A stretch of 12,467 nucleotides of DNA from a virus (IMGVR_UViG_2778261509_000004:1-12467), one strand, 5' to 3'; counted from the stretch's first letter, positions 1 through 12,467 are shown. The notes: generated from the sequence alone by a model not told the origin. Numbers and translations are program-made.

Positions 1-88
1 CGATTTTTTCCTGAGGTGTTTTACGTTTACGCACCTCTTTTCCTAACAAAACGCCAGCCATCTCAAAATTAGAACTAGTGTTAGACAT
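1..88 (-). CDS. hypothetical protein, 5' end only (gene runs off the left edge)
   Basis: Reverse complement of 1-88 begins ATG TCT AAC ACT and translates MSNTSSNFEMAGVLLGKEVRKRKTPQEKI with no stop before the window edge. No convincing Shine-Dalgarno. Absent from the ORF track because under 60 codons are visible. Confidence 0.3.
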   Translation of the reverse strand, partial: MSNTSSNFEMAGVLLGKEVRKRKTPQEKI

Positions 89-184
89 ATATCCAAGCCT
101 ATCTCTTATTTTAAGATACATCTACTGTCTGGTATTTCAGGGGGCCAGCTCACAAAGTCCTTTAAAGAACAGTTAAGTCGATAT

Positions 185-688
185 ATGAATGGTATGAATG
201 TATATCCATTCATTAGAATACCTTTTGATAGCATATCTTTCACTAAGGCTATGATTGGGCACGTGCTATCAGCAACTTCAGTTGAAGATTGTAAAAAAGA
301 ACCCGTAGATAGCCCCTTCTATACACCTTTAAAGGATTATGTTTTGGGTAAAAATTCAAGTTTTGAGGAAACTCATGATATTTACTACTGGTTTTACCCA
401 CACAGAATGCACATATCCGCTCAAAGTGTAGCATTTATGAACGAAGGACATGTGGCATTTATTTGTGCTTTACATTTTTTTCCTATCGGTTTTATTATCA
501 CAATGAAAAATGAAGGAACATACCCTGCCCACTCTACAAAATTAGAACTTGAAGATAAATTCCTTACATTTAATATGACCTCTATAAATTATGAGTATAC
601 GACATTTCCATTTGTAAATCTTAAGGGAAACCAAATGTATGCGATAAGCAACGGTCATACTTGTGTGAGTTATCCAATAATTAAGTGA
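185..688 (+). CDS. hypothetical protein (167 aa) in a low-GC block; function unknown
   Basis: A 504-nt ORF is unexpected by chance in AT-rich DNA, where stop codons are frequent. No recognisable motif in the translation and no strong RBS before the first ATG (alternatives at codons 4 and 23). Composition is clearly lower in GC than the rest of the window, by eye. Confidence 0.4.
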   Translation: MNGMNVYPFIRIPFDSISFTKAMIGHVLSATSVEDCKKEPVDSPFYTPLKDYVLGKNSSFEETHDIYYWFYPHRMHISAQSVAFMNEGHVAFICALHFFPIGFIITMKNEGTYPAHSTKLELEDKFLTFNMTSINYEYTTFPFVNLKGNQMYAISNGHTCVSYPIIK

Positions 689-741
689 CGGCTAAATCAT
701 ACAATCTACGCATGTTCACTTTCTACATATACCATCTATAA

Positions 742-767
742 TGTCCGCTGTTGGCACAAAGCGGACA
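742..767. other. inverted repeat TGTCCGCT-N10-AGCGGACA between convergent genes
   Basis: An 8-bp perfect stem (742-749 pairs with 760-767) around a 10-nt loop, between the 3' ends of the 185-688 ORF and the 835-1257 gene. No U-tract on either strand, so not a canonical intrinsic terminator. Confidence 0.3.
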
Positions 768-834
768 ACCACGCTAGCTCTACCCTGTGCCACAAAATGT
801 CAATTTGCATCTGAACTAATGCACTTTAATCTCG

Positions 835-1257
835 TCACTTCAATAAATACCGAACATCACCCTGATAAAACGACAATATGCGCTGCATAACTTCACTCTT
901 CCGGCACTCGCGACAGATTATGTTCTGACGCCTGTCGTAGCGACGTATTTCTCCGTCAGGTAATGACCAGATAAGGTCCGGATCAACCGCAGATGGTTTC
1001 TTCAGCTTTGCCCTTGAGAGCTTTTTACGGGCATTTTGCCAGTCCTTACGCGCCTGTTCAGACGGGAATAACCCGTAACCAGAGTTGTATACATCGCCGC
1101 TGGCAACCAGCTCTCTTGCGAGAACGCTCATCAGATATCTTGTCGCACCTGTCTTGACTTCCAGTTGCCGTAACGTCTCGCGTCCACTCCGGCGTACTAG
1201 CTCAACAACCTGCCCTTTAATTTTTTCCCGCTCTTCCTGTGTAAAAACTTTTGCCAT
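835..1257 (-). CDS. hypothetical prophage protein (140 aa from the ATG at 1257)
   Basis: ORF-track ORF 835-1272. I chose the internal ATG at 1257 because GGAGG lies 5 nt upstream on the coding strand; the track start at 1272 is a TTG that abuts the upstream stop. Tightly packed behind the replication genes on the same strand. No recognised motif. Confidence 0.65.
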   Translation of the reverse strand: MAKVFTQEEREKIKGQVVELVRRSGRETLRQLEVKTGATRYLMSVLARELVASGDVYNSGYGLFPSEQARKDWQNARKKLSRAKLKKPSAVDPDLIWSLPDGEIRRYDRRQNIICRECRKSEVMQRILSFYQGDVRYLLK

Positions 1258-1272
1258 AAGCGCCTCCGGCAA

Positions 1273-2034
1273 TCACTTTTCCGACACAATACGACTGGAG
1301 GAATCGACAATCTGTCGGACAATATCCCGGTGCTTGTTCAGCTCCCGCAGCGCGGCGCAGACTCGCTCCCACTTCTGGACATGATTTTTCGCCCGACGCA
1401 GTTCGCGGTTTGCCATATGCAGCGATGGTAAAACCAGGTCATCCGCTTGCGTTTCAGTAAACGATGGCAGCGACTGCACAATGTCCGCCACAGTTTCTGT
1501 TTTAATATCTTCCTGTGTTGCCGCTTCCTGTACTGGTAACGCAACACCGGCTGGCTGAGGAAAGGCTTTACCATCAGTTTCCGCTACCGATGCAGCTTTC
1601 GGCTCTGCTGGTAAATTATCGCCCGGCATGCAGTAACGAAATTTACCGTTCTGATTAACGCGAATCAGACGACCTTTACTGATTGCCATTGCCAGCGTTG
1701 AAGCCACTTTGCGTGATGTGATGCCGAAAAACGTAGCCAGTTCATCCGCCGTTTGTGGGCCACGTTGTTCAATCGTCGCAGTTAAATCGCACTCCGAAAT
1801 TTTTGCGACTGTTGCCGTGGTGGTTTCTTCCGGCAGTTCTGCCTGCTCTGGCTGTTCCTGCTGAACGTTGTTATCAGCCACGCGCCAGGTGTATACGCTT
1901 TTATCAACGAAGCCAGCCTTTTTCAGTTCCCACAGCTCGTTCAGCACTTCTTCACGACTGATATCAAGTCGCGCAGCCAGTTCTACCGACGTAGCTTTCC
2001 CCATTGCTTTCAGTGCGTCAAAAACAGTCTCCAT
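1273..2034 (-). CDS. hypothetical protein with two putative winged-helix-like segments joined by an acidic linker (253 aa from the ATG at 2034)
   Basis: ORF-track ORF 1273-2085. The ATG at 2034 ([13 protein letters not shown]) is preceded by GGGAGA about 10 nt upstream and leaves a 22-bp gap after the DnaC-like stop. Two segments look HTH-like: [32 protein letters not shown] and [35 protein letters not shown]. The fold assignment is inference from sequence pattern only. Confidence 0.65.
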
Positions 2035-2056
2035 TAAATTTTTCTCCCGGTAAAAA

Positions 2057-2803
2057 TTACTTCGCAATTCCTGGCTGGACGACATTCGGACGCCAGCTCT
2101 CCCAGTTAAAATTCACCCATCGCCCGCCGTTCATGGTCATGCGATCCATAATCCGCTCGCCGAGCAATGTTTTCATGGCCTCATAGTTCAGGTTTGTCAG
2201 CATTCCCACGCTACGCATCGACGCTGTCCGTCGATCAATAATCTGGTGCAGTACCACCTGCTCGTTTTTCGTCTCGCGCTGAATGCCAATTTCATCAAGA
2301 ACCAGCAGATCCACTTCGCACAGTTCCCGCAAAAATTTTTCGCCTGACTGCCCGTCGTCATAGCTGGCGTGGAGGGCACTCATAACATCAGCCACGGTAA
2401 CCACAATCACTGTCTGACCGTCTTTCAGCAGGCGATTCCCGATAGCTGCCGCTAAGTGATTCTTCCCGGTACCAGGTTTTCCGCTGAACGCAAAATTTGT
2501 ACACCCGGTCATCAGTTCATCAGCGATGGATTTCGCCTGACTCAACGCGTATCGCTGCCCTTCGTTCTGCACCTGGTAATTCGAAAACGAGCATTTGCGG
2601 TGCAATGGCTGGATGCCAGAGCGATTCAGAATTTTTTCCACCCGCAACTGACGATTCTGACGGTTGATCTCCTCACAACGTTTCTGGCCTTCGGAAAGTT
2701 GCCACTCGCGCCACTCCGCTACCGTCTTGAATGGCGCGGTTACATGTGACGGGGCCAGTCTGCGGATACGTTCAAGAACGTCGCCTGTCGCAATATTTTT
2801 CAT
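2057..2803 (-). CDS. DnaC-like AAA+ helicase loader (phage replication protein P functional analogue; YdaV-like)
   Basis: Walker [16 protein letters not shown] and Walker [10 protein letters not shown] in the translation, as in DnaC/IstB-family ATPases. GGGGG RBS 9-13 nt upstream. Start lies 6 bp after the stop of the upstream O-like gene, suggesting translational coupling. Confidence 0.9.
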
Positions 2804-2809
2804 GGTCAG

Positions 2810-3598
2810 TTACCCCCTGAAGCCTGGCGGGATCGCACTATCCGGTAACGAGACGGTGTTAACCTGTCGGAGTAACGTCTCAGGTCGAACACCTTTCGGC
2901 GCGAACAAGCCCTGGTATTCGTTGGCGATGCTGTGTCGAATCACCTGCTCAGGTGAAAAACCCTGCTGGCGGAATTTTTCCAGCTCCCGTATCGCCCCGT
3001 TAGCGCCCTGCTCCGTTCGAATCGGTTTTCGCAATGCCTGCCTGAACTGAACCCACTCATGCCAGAGTGTTTCCGGCAACCAGTCAGGCAGCTCGATAGC
3101 CTCCGGTTCGAATTTTTTAGACGCTCGTTTTTGGCGAGGGGGATTTAGGGGGAGATAAGTATTTATATCTTCCTCTTTCTCTTCCTCTGGTAACGCTTTT
3201 TGATCCGTTTTTGTAACGCTGGCAGCGTTACCTTTTCGTTTCAGTTCTCGTATTTTTGTTACTCTCTCGTTTGTAACCGCCCGTTTTTTAGAGCTTTTCC
3301 CGTTATGGCGCTCAAAGTTAGGAAGCGACAACACACCATTAGTTTCGACCAGCCATCCAACCTGAATTAACGCATCAGCAAAACCAGCCATAAAAGTGAT
3401 GCGATCTATTGCACTTTTTGTAACGCCGCGAGCGTTACACTCTGCGTTACCGTCTATCATTTGTTGATCCGCCCATGCCCAGAAGCGAATGACTTTCCCT
3501 AATGCGGCATCTGGATCAATATTCAGAATCTCAGCAAGCCTGAATATTTCCGGCTTATCCGGCGTAATAACTTCGAGCTTTATCCAGTTTGAAGCCAT
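2810..3598 (-). CDS. putative replication initiator / replisome organiser (lambda O-like position; YdaU-like)
   Basis: 262-codon ORF immediately upstream of the DnaC-like gene on the same strand. Two 19-bp palindromes lie inside the coding sequence and a third just upstream, like iterons within lambda O. Function is inferred from synteny and the repeats, not from a recognised catalytic motif. Confidence 0.6.
   Translation of the reverse strand: MASNWIKLEVITPDKPEIFRLAEILNIDPDAALGKVIRFWAWADQQMIDGNAECNARGVTKSAIDRITFMAGFADALIQVGWLVETNGVLSLPNFERHNGKSSKKRAVTNERVTKIRELKRKGNAASVTKTDQKALPEEEKEEDINTYLPLNPPRQKRASKKFEPEAIELPDWLPETLWHEWVQFRQALRKPIRTEQGANGAIRELEKFRQQGFSPEQVIRHSIANEYQGLFAPKGVRPETLLRQVNTVSLPDSAIPPGFRG
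3213..3231. repeat. 19-bp palindrome GTAACGCTGGCAGCGTTAC (copy 1 of 3), candidate origin iteron or operator
   Basis: Perfect dyad GTAACGC-N5-GCGTTAC read directly from the sequence. Extra half-sites nearby: GTAACGC at 3190-3196 and GTAACCGC at 3273-3280. Confidence 0.7.
3420..3438. repeat. 19-bp palindrome GTAACGCCGCGAGCGTTAC (copy 2 of 3)
   Basis: Perfect dyad, same arms as copy 1 with a different 5-bp centre. Followed by an extra half-site GCGTTAC at 3444-3450. Confidence 0.7.
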
Positions 3599-3611
3599 TT
3601 GTTTTCACCTT

Positions 3612-3630
3612 GTAACGCTCGCAGCGTTAC
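3612..3630. repeat. 19-bp palindrome GTAACGCTCGCAGCGTTAC (copy 3 of 3), about 14 bp upstream of the O-like start codon
   Basis: Perfect dyad with the same arms, positioned in the 5' leader of the O-like gene where an operator would sit. Confidence 0.7.
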
Positions 3631-3640
3631 ATTTAACTGA

Positions 3641-3662
3641 TACCGAACAAAACAGTTCGGTA
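3641..3662. other. inverted repeat TACCGAAC-N6-GTTCGGTA in the ydaT / O-like intergenic gap
   Basis: 8-bp perfect arms around a 6-nt spacer, located between the ydaT stop (3676) and the O-like start (3598). No U-tract follows on the transcribed (minus) strand, so a protein-binding site or RNA hairpin is more likely than a terminator. Confidence 0.35.
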
Positions 3663-3675
3663 CGATTAATTTCAA

Positions 3676-4098
3676 TCAATGCACTACGACAGAATCGCTA
3701 GGAGAACCGCCGCCGCTGAAATGCGCTTTCCGGTAAACGGCTTGGACTGCATCATCATGCGCATCAATTGCCGTACTTAACGCTTCCTGCGCCGCCAGTA
3801 ATGCACGGCGTTCCAGGGTATCGAAGATGCAGAGTCGGTGACGCAGCTCGCGCGGAAGGATTGCCAGAATTGCTGGGATCAGCTTCTGAATTTTTTCCCT
3901 TTGCGCATTCGTTTCACCTTTCAACCAACGGTGATAGATATTCTGCTGATTGTTCCAGTCCTTGCCTGGAACCAGGGGCAATTCGCCGCCCCCCTGGCGC
4001 AGATATTCTTCAGTAATTGCATTGGCTACCCATGCCTGCCCTTTTTCGGCTGCCAGGGCAAACAACACCGATTCGATGTGCTCATGCTTGATTTTCAT
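3676..4098 (-). CDS. ydaT: YdaT (Rac-prophage toxic protein, reported as a CII functional analogue)
   Basis: 140-codon ORF whose translation (MKIKHEHIESVLFALAAEKGQAWVANAITEEYLRQGGG...) matches my recollection of Rac YdaT in length and sequence. Lies directly downstream of ydaS on the same strand. Confidence 0.8.
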   Translation of the reverse strand: MKIKHEHIESVLFALAAEKGQAWVANAITEEYLRQGGGELPLVPGKDWNNQQNIYHRWLKGETNAQREKIQKLIPAILAILPRELRHRLCIFDTLERRALLAAQEALSTAIDAHDDAVQAVYRKAHFSGGGSPSDSVVVH

Positions 4099-4120
4099 GA
4101 ATCATTTGCCTCTTGATGTT

Positions 4121-4417
4121 TCAGGTATGATCAAATGAGGATTTGTTACTGTCATTTAGTTGCTTCACTGACATATTCTGCGAACAACATGCCGAACGTC
4201 GTAAATATGACCAGTCAATATCAGGACGAAGTTCTTCGCACAGCACCTCACCTCTTGTTGCACGTTCAATTGCTGGACATCTCTCGGCAGGCAATTGACG
4301 TACCCCTTTGATCCATTGATTTACGCTTGGAGGTGATACACCTAAAAGCCTAGCCATTGCTGTTTGCCCACCGACAACAGCACAAGCTTGCTTGAATGAA
4401 TAGTTCTCTTTTTTCAT
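4121..4417 (-). CDS. ydaS: YdaS, Cro-like HTH regulator (XRE family)
   Basis: 98-codon ORF with an HTH-like segment (FKQACAVVGGQTAMARLLGVSPPSVNQWIKG). GGAG lies 9-10 nt upstream of the ATG. Divergent from racR across an operator-rich 123-bp gap, the classic cro/cI arrangement. Confidence 0.8.
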   Translation of the reverse strand: MKKENYSFKQACAVVGGQTAMARLLGVSPPSVNQWIKGVRQLPAERCPAIERATRGEVLCEELRPDIDWSYLRRSACCSQNMSVKQLNDSNKSSFDHT

Positions 4418-4444
4418 CGAATGAACTCCAAAAACACACAGAGG

Positions 4445-4521
4445 TATTAGGCGACGCCTAATACAAATGTCAATAGGCTATGCCTAATACAATGAGAGTA
4501 GGGATTGCCTAATGCAATGAG
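4445..4521. promoter_or_regulatory. OR-like operator/promoter region between racR and ydaS
   Basis: Perfect 19-bp palindrome TATTAGGCGACGCCTAATA at 4445-4463. Palindrome TAGGC-TAT-GCCTA at 4474-4486. Three direct repeats of GCCTAAT(A/G)CAA at 25-bp spacing starting 4457, 4482 and 4507. On the minus strand there is a perfect -35 TTGACA (plus coordinates 4468-4473), with a weak -10 (TAATAC, 18-bp spacer) overlapping the big palindrome, a plausible ydaS promoter. On the plus strand a TACAAT -10 at 4488-4493 has no good -35, a plausible activator-dependent racR promoter. Confidence 0.6.
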
Positions 4522-4540
4522 CATAGGAGAATATTAAGCA

Positions 4541-5017
4541 ATGCTTAGTGGTAAAGACTTAGGCCGAGCGATAGAGCAGGCCATTAACAAAAAAATCGCA
4601 TCGGGATCCGTCAAATCAAAGGCGGAGGTCGCACGCCACTTCAAAGTCCAACCACCATCAATCTATGACTGGATTAAGAAAGGCTCCATAAGTAAAGATA
4701 AACTTCCAGAATTATGGCGTTTCTTTGCTGATGTTGTTGGTCCAGAGCATTGGGGGCTTAACGAATACCCCATACCAACCCCCACCAATCCAGATACAAA
4801 AAGTGAACTTTTAGATATAAACAACCTTTATCAAGCAGCCTCTGATGAAATAAGAGCGATTGTAGCTTTCCTGTTATCTGGAAATGCTACAGAACCAGAT
4901 TGGGTTGACCACGATGTTCGCGCCTACATAGCAGCGATGGAAATGAAAGTGGGTAAGTATCTGAAAGCTCTAGAATCTGAACGGAAAAGCCAGAACATCA
5001 CAAAAACTGGAACTTAA
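4541..5017 (+). CDS. racR: RacR, Rac prophage repressor
   Basis: 158-codon ORF whose translation (MLSGKDLGRAIEQAINKKIASGSVKSKAEVARHFKVQPPSIYDWIKKG...) matches my recollection of RacR. AGGAGA RBS upstream. Divergent from ydaS. Confidence 0.85.
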   Translation: MLSGKDLGRAIEQAINKKIASGSVKSKAEVARHFKVQPPSIYDWIKKGSISKDKLPELWRFFADVVGPEHWGLNEYPIPTPTNPDTKSELLDINNLYQAASDEIRAIVAFLLSGNATEPDWVDHDVRAYIAAMEMKVGKYLKALESERKSQNITKTGT

Positions 5018-5092
5018 ACTTATATGGTCTGACGGAAAACTCCTGGATTCCGTTATTTAACCCCCCCCATCACTTTCTCCAGTCGCCATCAC

Positions 5093-5157
5093 CTATTAGG
5101 TTACGCTTAAAACATTAGGCATAGCCTATTTACAATCAATTAGGCATTACCTATAGT
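5093..5157 (+). promoter_or_regulatory. OL/PL-like promoter-operator cluster driving the rightward early operon
   Basis: Near-consensus sigma70 promoter: -35 TTTACA (5129-5134), 17-bp spacer, -10 TATAGT (5152-5157). Operator-type motifs overlap it: TAGGC-ATA-GCCTA palindrome at 5116-5128, TTAGG half-sites at 5096, 5115 and 5140. The 15-mer TTAGGCATAGCCTAT (5115-5129) is the exact reverse complement of 4473-4487 in the racR/ydaS operator region. Confidence 0.6.
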
Positions 5158-5326
5158 TCCAGCATACCACCCACCCCGCCCCACAGAACGCCAGGCAATA
5201 CTTCGAGTTACCAGGCAGTGGTCAGGGGTTAAGTAGCCAGCCCGAGGCGTATGAACATGACGGCGGGATTCAAATTTTGCAGTGCAGCAGTTAGTTCCGC
5301 CACCCGGCGTTAAGGGGATAGATAAG

Positions 5327-5461
5327 ATGGTGCATTACGAAGTAGTTCAGTATTTGATGGATTGTTGCGGTATCACTTACAACCAGGCTGTGCAGGCTTT
5401 ACGCAGCAACGACTGGGATCTCTGGCAGGCAGAAGTCGCTATACGTAGCAACAAGATGTGA
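5327..5461 (+). CDS. ydaG: YdaG-like small protein (44 aa)
   Basis: ATG at 5327 preceded by GGGGA. Translation MVHYEVVQYLMDCCGITYNQAVQALRSNDWDLWQAEVAIRSNKM. Length and position (between racR and sieB) match Rac ydaG. Below the ORF-track size cutoff. Confidence 0.6.
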   Translation: MVHYEVVQYLMDCCGITYNQAVQALRSNDWDLWQAEVAIRSNKM

Positions 5462-5471
5462 GATTCGCAAA

Positions 5472-5627
5472 ATGCAAAAAATCGACCTCGGCAACAACGA
5501 ATCCCTGGTGTGCGGCGTGTTCCCCAACCAGGATGGAACGTTCACTGCCATGACGTATACCAAAAGCAAAACATTTAAAACCGAAACTGGTGCGCGCCGA
5601 TGGTTGGAGAAGCACACAGTAAGCTAA
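5472..5627 (+). CDS. ydaF: YdaF-like small protein (51 aa)
   Basis: ATG at 5472. Translation MQKIDLGNNESLVCGVFPNQDGTFTAMTYTKSKTFKTETGARRWLEKHTVS. Length and position match Rac ydaF. Its stop codon overlaps the sieB stop on the opposite strand. Confidence 0.55.
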   Translation: MQKIDLGNNESLVCGVFPNQDGTFTAMTYTKSKTFKTETGARRWLEKHTVS

Positions 5628-6112
5628 CGATTAAAACGTCTACTCCTGCTGTTCCAGAATAACTTCATAAAATGGGAGTATTTTTCGGTGACGAGATAAT
5701 AAGAACAGTTTGCGCTATCACTCTGATGTTGAATGATGCCCTTCCGTTCTAATTTTTTCATAACCGGGTTACGGCAAGGAGAAGTGATAATAAGATTTCC
5801 TGTTTTAAGGAAATCTTTAAATACAGCGATTTCTTTCTCAGATAAACGAAGCAATACTCGTTGCTCTGGTAGTAATGAATAATGCTTTTGAATATGTGCT
5901 CGCAATCTTGAGAAGGAAATGGCGACCACGAAAGAAAAGGCAAAAACGATAATCTGAAAGAGCCAAGGTATTTCAGTATAAGCATTGAATGCGACAGTAA
6001 ACTCTTTCGGTATCAGCCAGAGAGTGAGACCAAAAATGATAATCGTATACATAAGTCTTTCGAGTGGCTCGTTAGCAAAAAGTTTCAACAATGGAGTAAA
6101 TACATCCAACAT
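5624..6112 (-). CDS. sieB: SieB, superinfection exclusion protein (162 aa from the ATG at 6112)
   Basis: Translation from MLDVFTPLLKLFANEPLERLMYTIIIFGLTLWLI... matches my recollection of Rac SieB, with a hydrophobic N-terminal segment consistent with a membrane protein. The ORF-track version is extended to 6235; I prefer the 162-codon form. Confidence 0.75.
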   Translation of the reverse strand: MLDVFTPLLKLFANEPLERLMYTIIIFGLTLWLIPKEFTVAFNAYTEIPWLFQIIVFAFSFVVAISFSRLRAHIQKHYSLLPEQRVLLRLSEKEIAVFKDFLKTGNLIITSPCRNPVMKKLERKGIIQHQSDSANCSYYLVTEKYSHFMKLFWNSRSRRFNR

Positions 6113-6330
6113 ATCAATAACTCTCAACTGTAAGGGTATTGAAATGTTAACACAAGCTCTCGCTGTAGGGGTATAGCCGAGACCACCGAAGCCCGGAGGT
6201 GGTGAAATAAAACCGGGCACAACACGAAGGCGCATTTCCGATATCCATAAAGAGTCGGTCTTGTCTGTTAAATTTAAATGGTGGGAGTGCGCCTCCGGTT
6301 GTAAATAACGACATTGCTGTGTGTAGTCCT

Positions 6331-6372
6331 GGCGGCATCAGTTTTTTTCTTGAAGTTCGGCTGATGTCCGCC
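6331..6372. other. long imperfect inverted repeat GGCGGCATCAG-N19-CTGATG(T)CCGCC followed by CTTTTT
   Basis: 11-bp arms with a one-base bulge around a 19-nt loop, inside the ~440-bp non-coding gap between sieB and kilR. The loop is too long for a typical intrinsic terminator; could be a protein-binding dyad or structured RNA. Confidence 0.3.
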
Positions 6373-6553
6373 CTTTTTAAAGTGAGTTTTGTGATGCGGT
6401 GAATGCGGCTAAGCGCACGTGGCACAGTTAAAAGTCATGTTAGTCCTTATTGGTTTGGGTGGGAAAGCCGACTGTAATTGTTAACTGGTTGCAGTCACCT
6501 GGAGGCACCAGGCACCGCATCAACAAAGTTCATTTGTAAAAATGGAGATAATT

Positions 6554-6775
6554 ATGATTGCACATCACTTCGGAACTGATGAAATACCACGTCAGTGTGT
6601 GACTCCTGGCGATTATGTTCTTCATGAAGGCCGGACATATATTGCCTCGGCAAACAATATTAAAAAGCGAAAGCTTTATATTCGTAACCTGACCACAAAA
6701 ACATGCATTACTGACTGCATGATTAAAGTCTTCCTCGGTCGTGATGGTTTACCTGTAAAGGCGGAGTCATGGTGA
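6554..6775 (+). CDS. kilR: KilR, cell-division inhibitor of the Rac prophage (73 aa)
   Basis: ATG at 6554 preceded by GGAG (6544-6547). Translation [73 protein letters not shown] matches recalled KilR length and sequence. Confidence 0.8.
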
Positions 6776-6945
6776 TGACTAAGAAAATAAAATGTGCTTA
6801 CCACCTTTGCGATAAAGAAGTTAAAGAAAGCAAAAGCATTAAAAGACCACTTCATTTCATGCGTGGAGTTATCCCAACGACGGAAATGAAAAAATATTGT
6901 AGTGAAATATGTGCCGAAAAAGACCAGATGGCACACGAACTTTAA
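6775..6945 (+). CDS. ydaE: YdaE-like small Cys-rich protein (56 aa), putative zinc-binding
   Basis: ATG at 6775 overlaps the kilR TGA (ATGA coupling). Translation [56 protein letters not shown] contains a C-x4-C ... C-x3-C pattern. Below the ORF-track cutoff. Confidence 0.7.
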   Translation: MTKKIKCAYHLCDKEVKESKSIKRPLHFMRGVIPTTEMKKYCSEICAEKDQMAHEL

Positions 6946-7019
6946 TTAACTGACTATGCGAAACTGAATTTATGCCAGCAATGGCAGGGATTCGCTCAAC
7001 CTTAATTAAGGAGAAAAAC

Positions 7020-7295
7020 ATGATTACCAGTTATGAAGCCACTGTTGTAACTACTGATGACATTGTTCACGAAGTTAATCTGGAAGGAAAGCGTATTGGC
7101 TACGTGATTAAAACAGAAAATAAAGAAACCCCATTCACTGTAGTTGATATCGACGGTCCATCAGGCAACGTTAAAACACTTCACGAAGGTGTCAAAAAAA
7201 TGAGCCTGGTGCATATCGGAAAGAATCTGCCCGCAGAAAAAAAAGCCGGATTTCTGGCAACTCTGATTGCAATGAAATTAAAAGGTGAAATCTGA
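7020..7295 (+). CDS. racC: RacC (91 aa), function unknown
   Basis: ATG at 7020 preceded by AGGAG (7010-7014). Translation MITSYEATVVTTDDIVHEVNLEGKRIGYVIKTENKETPFTVVDIDGPSGNVKTLHEGVKKMSLVHIGKNLPAEKKAGFLATLIAMKLKGEI matches recalled RacC. The ORF-track start at 6972 is probably too far upstream. Confidence 0.8.
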   Translation: MITSYEATVVTTDDIVHEVNLEGKRIGYVIKTENKETPFTVVDIDGPSGNVKTLHEGVKKMSLVHIGKNLPAEKKAGFLATLIAMKLKGEI

Positions 7296-7300
7296 AAGAA

Positions 7301-7325
7301 ATAGCCTGCGTATGGCGCAGGCTAT
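7301..7325. other. perfect 10-bp stem-loop ATAGCCTGCG-TATGG-CGCAGGCTAT between racC and recE
   Basis: Read directly from the sequence. On the plus strand no U-tract follows it; on the minus strand it is followed by ATTTCTTTCA. Candidate attenuator or RNA-stability hairpin. Confidence 0.4.
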
Positions 7326-7396
7326 GAACAGTGTGTATCCGGCAAGATCATTCACTGAACAAAACGAATTTTAATCTGAGTTGAGGTTAAAAAACA

Positions 7397-10300
7397 ATGA
7401 GCACAAAACCACTCTTCCTGTTACGGAAAGCGAAAAAATCATCCGGTGAACCTGACGTCGTCCTGTGGGCAAGTGACGATTTTGAATCGACCTGTGCCAC
7501 TCTGGACTACCTGATCGTTAAGTCAGGTAAAAAACTGAGCAGCTATTTTAAAGCTGTTGCCACGAATTTTCCTGTCGTTAATGACCTGCCCGCTGAAGGT
7601 GAGATCGATTTTACCTGGAGTGAACGCTATCAACTCAGCAAAGACTCCATGACATGGGAACTAAAACCGGGAGCAGCACCAGACAACGCTCACTATCAAG
7701 GCAATACCAACGTCAACGGCGAAGACATGACTGAGATTGAGGAGAATATGCTACTCCCAATTTCTGGCCAGGAACTGCCCATTCGTTGGCTTGCTCAACA
7801 CGGCAGCGAAAAACCGGTAACGCACGTTTCACGCGACGGACTCCAGGCATTACACATTGCTCGGGCTGAAGAACTACCGGCTGTTACTGCCCTGGCTGTT
7901 TCCCACAAAACCAGCCTGCTCGCCCCGCTGGAAATTCGCGAACTCCACAAACTGGTTCGTGACACTGACAAAGTTTTCCCTAATCCTGGTAATTCAAACC
8001 TGGGACTGATAACTGCTTTTTTCGAAGCATACCTGAACGCTGACTACACCGATCGAGGACTGCTGACAAAAGAGTGGATGAAGGGTAATCGTGTTTCACA
8101 CATCACTCGCACGGCTTCCGGTGCTAATGCTGGCGGCGGAAACCTCACCGATCGCGGCGAAGGTTTCGTACACGATCTGACGTCACTGGCGCGCGACGTA
8201 GCCACTGGCGTACTGGCCCGTTCAATGGATCTGGACATCTATAACCTTCATCCGGCACACGCTAAACGCATTGAGGAAATTATCGCTGAAAATAAACCGC
8301 CCTTTTCTGTTTTCCGCGACAAATTCATCACCATGCCTGGCGGGCTGGATTATTCCCGCGCCATCGTGGTTGCGTCCGTAAAAGAAGCACCAATTGGGAT
8401 CGAGGTCACCCCCGCGCACGTCACTGAATATCTGAACAAAGTACTGACTGAAACCGATCATGCCAACCCTGATCCGGAAATCGTGGATATTGCCTGCGGT
8501 CGCTCCTCTGCCCCGATGCCGCAGCGAGTAACAGAAGAAGGAAAACAGGATGATGAAGAAAAACCGCAACCATCTGGAACAACGGCAGATGAACAGGGAG
8601 AGGCTGAAACAATGGAACCGGACGCAACTAAACATCATCAGGACACGCAGCCGCTGGATGCTCAGTCACCGGTAAATTCTGTTGATGCGAAATATCAGGA
8701 ACTGCGGGCAGAACTCCATGAAGCCCGGAAAAACATTCCATCAAAAAATCCTGTCGATGCCGATAAATTGCTTGCTGCATCACGTGGTGAATTTGTTGAC
8801 GGAATTAGCGACCCGAACGATCCGAAATGGGTTAAGGGGATCCAGACTCGCGATTCTGTGTACCAGAACCAGCCAGAAACGGAAAAAACCAGCCCGGATG
8901 TGAAACAACCTGAGCCAGTAGTGCAACAGGAACCGGAAATAGTCTGCAATGCCTGCGGTCAGACTGGCGGAGATAACTGCCCTGACTGTGGGGCGGTGAC
9001 GGGCGACGCAACATACCAGGAAACATTCGATGAAGAGAATCAGGTTGAAGCTAAGGAAAAAGATCCGGTGGAAATGGAAGGCGCTGAACATCCGCACAAT
9101 GAGAATGCTGGCAGCGATCCGCATCGTGATTGCAGTGATGAAACTGGTGAAGCGTCAGCTCCTGTAGCAACTGAAATCATGTGGCCGTCATATTTCGAGC
9201 CTGGCCGCTATGAAAACCTCCCGAACGAGGTTTATCACTCCGCCAACGGAATAAGCAGCACGATGCTGAAGGATGCCCGTATCAGCCTGATGTATTACCA
9301 CGGACGGCACATTGCCGGAACTATTCCGAACGAGGAAAGTGATGCACTGCTGCGTGGGCGGATCATTCACAGCTATGTTCTGGAAACGGATAAATTCGCT
9401 GATGAATATGCCATTCCGGTACCAGTTCCTGAATATGTGGTTACTACTTCTAGCGAACTGATCGCCATCATTAAAAAACACAATGCCAGTCTGCCAGCAC
9501 TGATGACACCAGAGCAGATGAAAGAGTGGATCGAAAGCTACAACAGCACTCTTATACAGCCACTGTCTGTAAGTGCTGGAGCCGAAGAAACAGGCATCCT
9601 TTACGGTTCGCTTCCGGTGGAATTCCGGCGTATTCCGGAGGAGGAGAAACATACTGCATCGGCAATGAAAGCCTGCATTAGAGAATACAATGCAAACCTC
9701 CCTCCTCTGTTGAAAACCAGTGGAACACGGGAGCAACTTCTGGAGCAAATTGAAACTGTAGATCCAGAACTGGCGAAAAAAGAACGTGCTAAATCTTTGC
9801 CTTACAACATCAGTGGCACGAAAGAGCAATTAACCGAAATCGCTCGGAAAATCCGCCCGGAACTGGTTACCCTGGAGGACTGGCAAAAACGCCAGCAAGA
9901 AGAAAACGCCGGGAAAACGTTTATCAGTTCAGATATGTATGAACAGGCAAAAAATATTCACGCTGCACTGCAAAACAATACTGATGCAGCAAGGCTACTC
10001 AACCACCCGGATCGCAAATCTGAAATCAGCTATTTCGGGTTTGATGAAGAAACCGGGCTGGAAATCAGGGTCCGTCCTGATATCGAAATCCGGCTGCCAT
10101 ACGAAAGCATTTGCGCCGACGTGAAGTCAGTCAGCCTCGGTTATGTGCGACAGGAACGACTGAAAGATCGCCTGCACCGTGAAATTATTGAGCGTGATTA
10201 TCACCTCAGCGCAGCAATGTATTGCGATGTGGCAAATCTGGACAAATTTTTCTGGATCTTCGTCAACAAAGATGCTGGCTATCACTGGGTGGCAGTCGTG

Positions 10301-10468
10301 GAAGCCTCGCAGGAACTCCTGGAACTTGGTCGACAGGAATATCGCCGGACGCTACGCCAGATAAACGAAGCCCTGGAGACAAACAACTGGCCAGCACCGA
10401 TTACCGAAAGTTATACCGACGAATTAAACGACTTTGATCTTCGTCGTCTTGAAGCACTGAGCATCTGA
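7397..10468 (+). CDS. recE: RecE-family exodeoxyribonuclease VIII (1023 aa) with a C-terminal PD-(D/E)xK-type nuclease domain
   Basis: N-terminus [24 protein letters not shown] matches recalled RecE. The C-terminal third carries YH...GIS and RPD...DVK motifs. It also has an acidic low-complexity linker and a C-x2-C-x7-C-x2-C knuckle ([16 protein letters not shown]). Longer than the 866 aa I recall for K-12 RecE. Confidence 0.85.
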
Positions 10469-10479
10469 GGAAGGACACA

Positions 10480-11532
10480 ATGAACGAATTAACTCAACAA
10501 GAAAATATTAACTCTAATGTTGCGGTTTTCAGCCCTCAGTCCCTGGCTGCAATTCAGACATTTTCCCAGGTAATGGCTTCCGGCATGGCTACTGTACCGG
10601 AACACCTCCGGGGAAATCCATCAGACTGCATGGCCATCACCATGCAGGCGATGCAGTGGCAAATGAACCCTTACGCAGTAGCTCAGAAAACTTTCGTTGT
10701 GAATGGTGTGCTCGGATATGAAGCGCAACTGGTTAATGCCGTAATCAGTACTCGTGGGCCGCTAACCGGGCGTATTGAATATGACTGGTTCGGGCCGTGG
10801 GAAAAAATTATCGGGAAATTTGAAATCAGGAAGAGCGACAAAGGGAAAGAATATCGTGTACCTGGCTGGAAGCTGGCCGATGAAAACGGGATCGGTGTTC
10901 GTGTCCAGGCAACACTACGCGGCGAAAGTAAACCACGCGTACTGGAATTACTTCTGGCGCAGGCCAGAACACGTAATTCAACGCTATGGGCCGACGATCC
11001 TCGCCAGCAGCTTGCCTATCTGGCGCTGAAACGCTGGGCGCGCCTTTATTGCCCCGAAGTGATTCTTGGAGTGTACACCAGGGACGAACTGGACGAGCCA
11101 CAGGAAAAAATCATTAATCCGGTTCAGGAACATAAAAACACTTCCGCTTGCCGCGCGGAACGTGAAACAACAATTATTGAGCAGGATGCCGGGGAAAACT
11201 GGATCGATGCTTTCCGTGAACGTATTGAGCAGGCACAAAGCACCGGGGAAACAACAGCACTTCGCCAGGAAGTGGAAGATCATAAAAATACACTTGGCGC
11301 TCTCTATACGGAACTTAAAGGAAAAGTGGTTCAGCGTCATCACCGTCTCAATGCTATTGCCCGTATCGAGAAGATGATAAATGACCTACCTTCTTCAGGT
11401 GATCCAGAAGCAGAACAAAAATTTACTGCTCTGGAAAATACGCTGAATGCTGCCCGGCCACATCTGGGTGAATTATATGAGGCGTATAAAACGACACTGA
11501 CAGATATGAAACCAGAATATATCGGCTCCTGA
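10480..11532 (+). CDS. putative single-strand annealing protein partnered with RecE (RecT/Red-beta-like; 350 aa)
   Basis: Starts 12 bp after the recE stop with a GAGGAAGGA RBS, the classic exonuclease-then-annealase order. A segment (AITMQAMQWQMNPYAVAQKTFVVNGVLGYEAQLVNAVIS) loosely resembles the conserved core of Red-beta/RecT. It does not match the 269-aa K-12 RecT I recall, so the family call is tentative. Confidence 0.55.
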   Translation: MNELTQQENINSNVAVFSPQSLAAIQTFSQVMASGMATVPEHLRGNPSDCMAITMQAMQWQMNPYAVAQKTFVVNGVLGYEAQLVNAVISTRGPLTGRIEYDWFGPWEKIIGKFEIRKSDKGKEYRVPGWKLADENGIGVRVQATLRGESKPRVLELLLAQARTRNSTLWADDPRQQLAYLALKRWARLYCPEVILGVYTRDELDEPQEKIINPVQEHKNTSACRAERETTIIEQDAGENWIDAFRERIEQAQSTGETTALRQEVEDHKNTLGALYTELKGKVVQRHHRLNAIARIEKMINDLPSSGDPEAEQKFTALENTLNAARPHLGELYEAYKTTLTDMKPEYIGS

Positions 11533-11542
11533 TATTTACTTT

Positions 11543-11580
11543 GGCGGTGTAGCCTCACCGCCATCACAAAATTTTATTTT
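11543..11580 (+). terminator. possible intrinsic terminator or attenuator after the annealing-protein gene
   Basis: GC-rich hairpin GGCGGTG-TAGCCT-CACCGCC (11543-11562) followed by ATCACAAAATTTTATTTT. The U-rich run is separated from the stem by several nt, so termination would be partial at best. Confidence 0.4.
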
Positions 11581-11595
11581 ATGAGAGAAAAGACA

Positions 11596-11790
11596 ATGCG
11601 GTATGAAAAAGTCAAACCATGCCCTTTTTGTGGTTGTCCATCAGTAACGGTGAAAGCCATTTCAGGATATTACCGCGCGAAGTGTAACGGATGCGAATCC
11701 CGAACCGGCTATGGTGGAAGTGAAAAAGAAGCACTCGAACGATGGAATAAACGAACCACTGGAAATAATAATGGAGGTGTTCATGTATAA
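11596..11790 (+). CDS. ralR: RalR/Lar restriction-alleviation protein (64 aa)
   Basis: Translation MRYEKVKPCPFCGCPSVTVKAISGYYRAKCNGCESRTGYGGSEKEALERWNKRTTGNNNGGVHV with C-x2-C ... C-x2-C matches recalled Lar. The ORF-track start at 11581 has no RBS; the ATG at 11596 has AGAGA upstream. Confidence 0.75.
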   Translation: MRYEKVKPCPFCGCPSVTVKAISGYYRAKCNGCESRTGYGGSEKEALERWNKRTTGNNNGGVHV

Positions 11791-11971
11791 AATTACCGCC
11801 ACTATTGAAAAGGAAGGTGGCACTCCTACTAACTGGACAAGGTACTCAAAAACAAAATTAACCAAATCAGAATGCGAAAAAATGCTCTCAGGTAAAAAAG
11901 AAGCAGGCATTTCCAGAGAGCAGAAAGTAAAACTGATAAATTTTAATTGCGAGAAACTTCAGTCGTCGTGA
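11783..11971 (+). CDS. ydaC: YdaC-like small protein (62 aa from the ATG at 11783)
   Basis: Strong GGAGG (11773-11777) 5 nt before the ATG at 11783, which overlaps the ralR stop. Position between ralR and xisR matches Rac ydaC. Exact start and identity are uncertain. Confidence 0.5.
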   Translation: MYKITATIEKEGGTPTNWTRYSKTKLTKSECEKMLSGKKEAGISREQKVKLINFNCEKLQSS

Positions 11972-12070
11972 ATTGCATTGTATTCAAATTAAAACTTCAT
12001 AGCTGATTATTAATAATCAACATCGGGCGTCAATTTCAGTCTAACATTGGCGCCTGCCAGAGGTGATGCG

Positions 12071-12286
12071 ATGGCACAAGTAATCTTTAATGAAGAGTGG
12101 ATGGTTGAATACGGCCTGATGCTTCGCACTGGTCTGGGGGCCAGACAAATTGAAGCATACCGCCAGAACTGTTGGGTGGAAGGCTTCCACTTCAAACGAG
12201 TATCTCCTTTAGGGAAACCAGACAGTAAGCGAGGGATTATCTGGTACAACTATCCAAAGATAAATCAGTTTATCAAAGACTCATGA
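12071..12286 (+). CDS. xisR: Rac-type excisionase-like protein XisR/YdaQ (71 aa)
   Basis: ATG at 12071 preceded by AGGTGA. Translation [71 protein letters not shown]. Lies immediately upstream of the integrase start, whose ATG (12288) follows the xisR stop by one base. Confidence 0.7.
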
Positions 12287-12287
12287 T

Positions 12288-12412
12288 ATGTCTAAATTAC
12301 CAACAGGTGTCGAGATTCGAGGTAAATACATTCGCATCTGGTTCATGTTTCGAGGAAAACGATGTCGGGAAACATTGAAAGGCTGGGAGGTTACTAACAG
12401 TAACATTAAAAA
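12288..12412 (+). pseudogene. intR: integrase 5' fragment (N-terminal arm-binding region), interrupted by IS1
   Basis: Translation from 12288 reads MSKLPTGVEIRGKYIRIWFMFRGKRCRETLKGWEVTNSNIKK, a typical Rac/P22-type integrase N-terminus. The reading frame then enters the IS1 end and stops at TGA 12431-12433. Confidence 0.75.
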
Positions 12413-12467
12413 GGTAATGACTCCAACTTACTGATAGTGTTTTATGTTCAGATAATGCCCGATGACC
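12413..12467 (-). mobile_element. IS1 terminal region (inverted repeat plus 3' end of insB), truncated by the window edge
   Basis: GGTAATGACTCCAACTTACTGATAGTGTTTTATGTTCAGATAATGCCCGATGAC matches the recalled IS1 end with about two mismatches. The rest of the element lies outside the window. Confidence 0.85.
12428..12466 (-). CDS. insB: IS1 InsB C-terminal fragment (last 12 codons plus stop)
   Basis: Reverse complement of 12428-12466 reads GTC ATC GGG CAT TAT CTG AAC ATA AAA CAC TAT CAG TAA = VIGHYLNIKHYQ*, as recalled for the insB 3' end. Confidence 0.55.
   Translation of the reverse strand, partial: VIGHYLNIKHYQ

Follow-up and report, generated by a model that had tools for sequence, protein, structure and literature searches.

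A probable pseudogene remnant of a predicted HNH nuclease gene in a prophage cargo slot, and the conserved hairpin at its border

Does the AT-rich left end of a prophage hold an undescribed gene? The question is raised by positions 1-834 of IMGVR_UViG_2778261509_000004:1-12467, a viral DNA stretch of 12,467 nucleotides (the window, that is, the whole stretch analysed). A preliminary description of this block had placed a 167-codon open reading frame (ORF) with a weak ribosome-binding site (RBS) at 185-688, beside the start of a leftward gene at 88 and a hairpin at 742-767. We found that the ORF is very probably what is left of an HNH cargo gene, truncated by an insertion sequence (IS) in a defence slot, and that its intact parent is likely an anti-phage nuclease.

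The truncated reading frame

We compared window positions 1-900 with 5426 complete E. coli genomes by megablast. The matches divided at position 152, with intact loci matching to the right and dispersed copies to the left. Window 152-900 was 100% identical to 79 complete genomes in which an intact coding sequence (CDS) of 810 nt occupies the equivalent of window -121 to 688. Its product is WP_000161640.1, a 'hypothetical protein' of 269 aa, and its stop codon is window 686-688. Window 153 falls within codon 92 of this gene, and the ATG at 185 corresponds to internal Met103; PHROG 21495 (unknown function) aligned the ORF to profile positions 103-269 of 269. Since the 810-nt CDS is intact elsewhere and the profile match begins at position 103, ORF 185-688 is not an intact gene. 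Moreover, the Rac-like prophages of LR-21-1, RM10740 and several pig enterotoxigenic E. coli strains, which are free of the IS, were 100% identical to window 152-12412, and the remnant carried no mutations relative to the intact copies. It follows that the IS arrived very recently and that the remnant is undecayed. The exact junction between IS and gene was found in none of the complete E. coli genomes, GTDB representatives, IMG/VR or JGI metagenomes. Judged from these alignments, ORF 185-688 is a recent pseudogene remnant, cut at codon 92 by an IS3-family element.

The sequence left of the junction belongs to that element. Hundreds of copies, chromosomal and plasmid-borne, matched window 1-153/155 at 98-100% identity, with up to 28-29 places per genome, and a query of window 1-200 matched 1069 places in 895 records. 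The matching copies carry the annotation 'IS3-like element ISEc48 family transposase', to which RefSeq adds 'programmed frameshift'. IS3-family elements have terminal repeats of the form 5'-TG ... CA-3', and a short target duplication of 3-5 bp is expected of them. A complete copy (L007, NZ_CP122758.1) has imperfect terminal inverted repeats with TG/CA ends, which sets the IS end at window 152, where the terminal repeat finishes ...CCAGCTCA (TG... on the IS strand). The leftward ORF start at 88 (MSNTSSNFEMAGVLLGKEVRKRKTPQEKI), which RefSeq places at window 61 for the same gene, belongs to the transposase gene OrfA; only its first 29 codons lie inside the window, and OrfA of the complete copy matched Pfam HTH_Tnp_1 (PF01527; E 2.8e-18). 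These findings indicate that window 1-152 is the terminal 152 bp of an IS3-family insertion sequence. The complete copy in NZ_CP122758.1 lies between 16-bp direct repeats (CGTGTTACTGCATGTA), far longer than the expected 3-5 bp.

The remnant is most likely not made as protein and would be without function. From the stop at 44-46, which lies within the IS, to position 185 the frame contains no ATG, GTG or TTG; no Shine-Dalgarno sequence precedes ATG185, and a sequence scan found no promoter-like site in 153-185. The true start of the intact gene has GAGGG about 8 nt upstream. The 167-aa translation had no Pfam, PADLOC or NCBIfam match, and it contains no nuclease motif, all motif residues of the parent (18-85) lying upstream of the IS junction.

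The preliminary description was thus accurate about the ORF (plus strand, ATG start, 167 aa), its weak RBS and the leftward start at 88, and mistaken in treating the gene at 88 as a partner of the ORF rather than as an IS transposase gene. Its remark that the ORF has no recognisable motif agrees with the missing family matches, but only because the HNH-like N-terminal domain was lost. It had also named homologues that would reveal a decayed fragment of a known gene, and this is what the homologues show, the parent itself being uncharacterised. As the likeliest place in the window for an undescribed gene, the block yielded an IS end and an IS-truncated pseudogene, although the parent family is indeed uncharacterised.

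The left end of the window is laid out as follows.

1-152, minus strand: end of an IS3-family (ISEc48-like, IS2-group) insertion sequence, 98-100% identical to dispersed copies; OrfA runs leftward from 88 and leaves the window
153-688, plus strand: 3' remnant of the WP_000161640.1 gene (part of codon 92, codons 93-269; stop at 686-688), assigned by identity to intact loci
689-742, plus strand: AT-rich 3' untranslated tail of the cargo cassette (GC 0.34), which moves together with the gene into other contexts
743-766, plus strand: cassette-border hairpin, with cargo to the left and backbone to the right; the pattern is kept in 116 IMG/VR contigs
767-834, no strand assigned: backbone intergenic segment downstream of DUF977, with CTGTGCCA at 785-792, common to lambdoid prophages with unrelated cargo (L015-L017)
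835-1272, minus strand: DUF977 gene, context and not cargo (Pfam DUF977, E 1e-29), annotated in all related loci

The AT-rich left block was readily seen, with a GC content of 0.33-0.36 in 300-nt windows across 1-750. By segment, GC was 0.395 in 1-152, 0.334 in 153-741 and 0.473 in 742-834, against a mean of 0.47 in 1273-12467. Positions 1-741 are the most AT-rich part of the window; the block therefore ends at about 741 and not near 830 as first described, and the remainder is not uniformly typical, having further low-GC patches (0.37-0.39) at 5551-6150, 6601-7200 and 11701-12150. Nor is the block a single cargo unit: 153-741 is cargo, but 1-152 is the unrelated IS end. Among the low-GC patches at 5624-6235 (minus strand) and 6600-7200, one contains a 203-aa ORF that, from its position and the Rac gene order only, would encode a SieB-like membrane protein.

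At the right edge of the window, 12413-12467, stands an IS1 terminal inverted repeat (GGTAATGACTCCAACTTA...), at about codon 42 of the prophage int gene (start 12288). In its closest relatives int is not interrupted, and they cease to match the window at 12412. With two different IS elements in the prophage and int split by IS1, the prophage cannot excise.

The parent family and its predicted nuclease domain

A word-indexed search returned 93 homologues of about 270 aa in Enterobacterales, Vibrio, Pseudomonas, Plesiomonas and others, under uninformative source names such as 'chaperonin' and 'metal-binding protein'. An exhaustive profile search found 1789 clusters (50% identity) at E<=1e-3, 352 of them at E<=1e-30, and both domains were kept in nearly all of the best 150 family members listed. 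We measured conservation in 132 members with 20-44% identity to the E. coli protein. Nine residues were invariant (C18, C21, H31, C73, C76, N77, G127, W171 and P202), and nine more were conserved in at least 90% of members (D30, P33, P34, L81, G82, D85, H128, A131 and P244).

The most conserved residues of the family form an N-terminal motif, CxxC...DH...CxxCN, with an Asp (D85) eight residues after N77. Such an arrangement characterises HNH nucleases that bind zinc and belong to the HNH_5/endonuclease VII type. Among the 132 members, Pfam HNH_5 matched 40 at E<=0.01 (best E 1.9e-6) and Endonuclease_7 matched two. An AlphaFold2 model of the parent (pLDDT 85, pTM 0.87) has a strand at 24-32 and a helix at 74-103, with D30-H31 at the end of a beta strand (beta hairpin) and C73-N77 at the start of the long helix. 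From motif and model together, parent residues 1-91 are predicted to be a Cys4-zinc HNH/endonuclease-VII-like nuclease domain. The C-terminal region of about 170 aa had no relative detectable by sequence or fold. The full E. coli protein gave no usable Pfam or NCBIfam match, PDB sequence searches with two profiles returned only spurious matches (E ~0.7-1), and the parent model had no convincing relative among solved or viral structures.

The family is under purifying selection, with a dN/dS of 0.14 against the phage pro147 copy and 0.06 against the Serratia copy, similar in both gene halves. Gene GC was 35-41% in every host examined, including Pseudomonas, and two exact 269-aa sequences occurred on at least 1000 and on 769 contigs. 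No promoter of the intact gene passed a consensus scan. Neither family nor accession was named in any paper found, the accession is absent from the DefensePredictor supplements, and the family was not found in the Rousset 2022 hotspot paper. We regard the family, itself uncharacterised, as belonging to a known kind: its genes are candidates for stand-alone HNH nuclease cargo.

The gene travels as a cassette of about 1.0 kb. Identical or near-identical copies were found in the lambdoid slot between DUF977 and hokD (L001, NZ_CP025916.1, where the intact cassette spans L001 5583-6624), in the classical Z/fun slot, which in P2-like prophages and in phage pro147 separates the genes for tail sheath and tail fibre, and on a plasmid, where the copy is truncated. 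Including its 3' tail, the cassette was 99.5-99.9% identical in a P2-like prophage (L014) and the plasmid (L013), and 94% identical in pro147; about 136 of the 5426 complete E. coli genomes carry at least 80% of it. Among more distant members, one stands at the end of a Vibrio filamentous (inovirus) prophage and another at the end of a P2-like remnant in Serratia. In an Enterobacter prophage the gene adjoins the terminase, and it also occurs in islands, one in Pseudomonas bounded by serine recombinases and one in Plesiomonas that has genes for HEPN_AbiU2, SduA_C and Fic as well. No conserved partner gene adjoined the family members in the loci examined. In P2-like prophages and on the plasmid, the cassette adjoins genes for a DUF2254 protein and a BCCT transporter (L014 6079-9417, L013/L237), which are additional, non-phage cargo of the Z/fun slot.

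Intact alleles were far commoner than dead ones. One dead allele has a T6->T5 frameshift at codons 51-52 (GAATTTTTTGG), about 150 nt into the gene, and occurs in P2-like (L238/L239) and Rac-like (L240) prophages; its presence in two prophage families could reflect recurrent homopolymer slippage, which might switch the gene on and off, or the passing on of an already dead allele. Further dead alleles arose by 5' truncation, by 3' truncation on the plasmid and by the IS insertion in the window. Such independent dead alleles fit a costly nuclease and ordinary decay alike.

The cargo slot and its border hairpin

On its right the cargo slot is anchored by the DUF977 gene, which is the last gene in the operon of the replication module. 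Between the same two flanking genes, DUF977 and hokD, sibling prophages carried other cargo: AbiH (E 7.8e-69) with a 463-aa ORF, a PD-T7-1 homologue (E 7e-157) with a 314-aa ORF, or two uncharacterised ORFs. Both AbiH and PD-T7-1 (the latter from Vassallo et al. 2022, PMC9519451) are single-gene defences borne by prophages. A near-empty slot was found in one of the 1346 E. coli genomes matching a slot-flank query, and proved to be an internally deleted AbiH cargo. These comparisons indicate that window 1-834 is the right part of a defence-cargo slot in a Rac/Qin-like lambdoid prophage. The preliminary description had proposed horizontally acquired cargo in a prophage moron slot of a kind that often carries defence genes, and both proposals were borne out, different cargos sharing the same flanks and AbiH or PD-T7-1 homologues standing beside the same DUF977 gene in other strains. 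PD-T7-1-type cargo and the plasmid copy of the cassette come with a small tyrosine recombinase of 200 aa, annotated 'site-specific integrase' (L013 6013-6615, L017 1-304, L020/L068/L083/L094). This recombinase was rejected as a general driver of cassette movement, being absent from other hairpin-bounded cargos.

The hairpin where the cargo ends, at 743-766 (742-767 with the flanking T-A pair), reads GTCCGCT-G-TTGGCACA-A-AGCGGAC. In the window it has an 8-bp stem and a folding energy (dG) of -13.6 kcal/mol, a stability that alone is within chance (z -1.2); across copies the stem is 7-8 bp and the 8-nt loop invariant. It had no Rfam match. A Rho-independent terminator was considered and rejected, as there is no T tract on either strand and a terminator scan did not call it. 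The hairpin given earlier as marking a convergent junction is present, but it is more than a junction terminator, namely a sequence-conserved cassette-border repeat.

This was evident from other copies. In an alignment of eight contexts, GTCCGCT-N-TTGGCACA-N-AGCGGAC lay exactly where unrelated cargo and backbone meet. When IMG/VR was scanned for the exact pattern, 116 viral contigs had it, flanked by 35 different sequences on the cargo side and 24 on the backbone side, and three cargo types, the HNH cassette among them, occurred on both lambdoid (AACCACGC...) and P2-like (TGTCAGATTAGG...) backbones. The first variable loop base tracked the cargo (purity 0.97) and the second the backbone (0.98), so the junctions fall inside the invariant 8-nt loop. 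ORFs of the hairpin-adjacent cargo matched 89 PADLOC families, including SduA, SIR2-HerA, ThsB, IetS, PD-T7-1 and CBASS-type endonucleases. In intact loci the left cassette border, GTCyGCT-TTGAGCGAAA-AGCAGAC (L001 5584-5607; L014), repeats the right one in inverted orientation along about 33 nt; its counterpart in this prophage is on the far side of the IS and so outside the window. A partner hairpin with the same stem was present 0.4-5.4 kb away in about 40 of the 116 contigs.

About 20 nt downstream of the hairpin, CTGTGCCA at 785-792 is the reverse complement of the hairpin loop TGGCACAG and is kept in lambdoid and P2-like backbones. Pairing of TTGGCACA(G) with CTGTGCCA could form a pseudoknot or an alternative pairing on a minus-strand backbone transcript, or the two could be inverted DNA half-sites. 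A looser pattern search revealed almost no covariation in the outer stem, so that the stem is conserved as sequence; this suggests that the hairpin is a DNA site or the product of recent spread rather than a purely structural RNA. In three IMG/VR metagenome contigs (L048, L050 and L098) we observed arrays of 3-5 hairpins with GTCCGCT/AGCGGAC stems, loops TTTGGGGGTAA, ATTGGCCCAT and TTTGACCCAA, and a spacing of 45-1000 nt; these arrays with other loops suggest a wider repeat family beyond the slots of E. coli phages.

The hairpin itself is not new, being annotated in GenBank records of the P2 Z region. A 72-nt query of the hairpin and its flank aligned at 97% identity with the repeat that AJ512680.1 (P2-EC46 Z region) annotates as 'left inverted repeat', and the hairpin with a P2-type flank was 91-97% identical to the annotated repeat in the Z-region records of P2-EC45, P2-EC46 and P2-EC67 (AJ512679, AJ512680 and AJ512685). 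The hairpin-plus-flank query matched 101 phage records, including P2 NC_001895. As far as we have checked, what is added here is that the element also borders the lambdoid slot, that its cargo is largely defence genes, and that the junctions map to the loop. The mechanism by which defence genes are exchanged between P2/P4 hotspots and other elements is listed as unresolved in a 2026 survey (PMC13586616).

Interpretation and comparison with known systems

We explain the observations as follows. The slot between the replication module (DUF977) and the hokD/nin region was occupied by an AT-rich one-gene cassette of about 1.0 kb, encoding a 269-aa two-domain protein with a predicted N-terminal HNH/endonuclease-VII-like nuclease and a C-terminal region of about 170 aa. 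The IS3-family insertion at codon 92 then cut off the nuclease domain, the start codon, the RBS and the upstream region. In the intact protein, sensing or binding of a phage-specific feature by the C-terminal domain would be followed by DNA cutting by the HNH domain. The cassette ends at the conserved hairpin at 743-766, where different cargos meet lambdoid and P2-like backbones.

A stand-alone, selectively maintained and mobile HNH nuclease in the positions of AbiH and PD-T7-1 is most simply read as a single-gene anti-phage nuclease. We therefore give somewhat better than even chances to the intact parent being a stand-alone anti-phage (superinfection-exclusion) nuclease. Several points weigh against the explanation as a whole. 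Neither the gene's 5' half nor the target-site duplication is inside the window, and neither was recovered; as far as the sequence goes, an outward IS promoter together with Met103 might still allow the remnant to be expressed. The E. coli protein scored 11.6 bits against HNH_5 (cut-off 27.5; E 0.29), PADLOC matched PtuB alone among the 132 members, in two of them and through the HNH motif, and PADLOC-DB v2.0.0 (2023 models) gave no family at E<=10 for either the full protein or the ORF. No experiment or paper was found that ties the parent family to defence.

Within the defence reading, the parent might be a modification-dependent (Type IV) restriction endonuclease, whose C-terminal domain would read hydroxymethylcytosine (hmC), glucosyl-hmC or methylated DNA and whose HNH domain would cut incoming DNA directly instead of causing abortive infection; we consider this sub-case fairly unlikely. 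A selfish free-standing HNH homing endonuclease, spreading by cutting empty sites and of no benefit to the host, is quite unlikely as the parent, and the window copy would still have been killed by the IS. The HNH motif, a single free-standing AT-rich gene found between genes in several phage types, the near-identity of the ~1-kb cassette (99.5-99.9%) across unrelated contexts and a conserved hairpin exactly at the insertion border would all suit such an element. However, the same border is used by unrelated cargos (AbiH, PD-T7-1, SduA and SIR2-HerA) that encode no such nuclease, and is therefore not specific to the HNH gene. The family also occurs in non-phage chromosomal islands, and none of the 1346 E. 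coli genomes matching the slot-flank query had the empty slot that continuing homing would require. That ORF 185-688 is itself expressed, for example from an outward IS promoter, as a C-terminal-domain protein acting as a decoy or dominant-negative regulator is very improbable: the frame is open from 47 to 688, its sequence is undamaged and gene finders call the same 167-aa product in other assemblies with a frameshifted 5' part, but those calls are artefacts of the T6->T5 frameshift, the start signals before ATG185 are missing, nearly all of the best 150 family members listed retain both domains, and an insertion as recent as the identity to intact alleles implies left no time for selection.

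Returning to the anti-phage reading of the parent, we tentatively link it with one of the hairpin. Jointly, and with a probability well short of even, the family would be a new single-gene anti-phage nuclease with a novel C-terminal sensor, and the 24-nt hairpin with its TTGGCACA loop would be the crossover site of hairpin-directed recombination. Such recombination could be site-specific or of the short-homology RecET/Red type, and would carry defence cassettes back and forth from the lambdoid replication/nin slot to the Z/fun slot of P2.

For the window itself the consequence is small, the ORF being a freshly made pseudogene in an IS-riddled prophage. The parent is a large, selectively maintained family in slots that elsewhere hold recognised defence genes, yet Pfam, NCBIfam and PADLOC have no model for it; as a candidate new single-gene defence it is well defined. 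In the border hairpin there is a concrete, mutable sequence that bears on how defence cargo moves between unrelated families of temperate phages, and as a lead on cassette mobility it is worth following.

Among known nucleases, HNH_5 (PF14279), T4 endonuclease VII (PF02945) and PtuB resemble the parent in the CxxC...DH...CxxCN motif and in predicted secondary structure. Unlike PtuB of Septu, which has the ATPase partner PtuA, the parent protein has no ATPase partner; it also differs from all three in that its nuclease is N-terminal and fused to a domain of about 170 aa without detectable relatives, and the window copy lacks the entire nuclease domain. The AbiH and PD-T7-1 cassettes share with the HNH cassette the DUF977-hokD position, the hairpin border, AT-richness and a size of one or two genes, whereas in sequence they show no similarity to the HNH family, whose defence role is predicted only.

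As for the border, short conserved stem-loops at the junctions of accessory cassettes are reportedly a feature of modular shuffling in the PeSL cassettes of T4-type phages, as Arbiol et al. are said to have described in 2010, and in the lambdoid 'boundary sequences' attributed to Clark et al. in 2001. The likeness would be one of logic only: the sequences differ, the PeSL phages are lytic and those considered here temperate, and no promoter is evident in the hairpin. The closest counterpart is the set of inverted repeats of the P2 Z/fun region, whose records reportedly go back to Nilsson, Karlsson and Haggard-Ljungquist in 2004. They share with the hairpin the border sequence and the inverted copy at the other end of the cargo; the P2 repeat borders a tail-gene slot, whereas the repeat in the window borders the lambdoid replication/nin slot.

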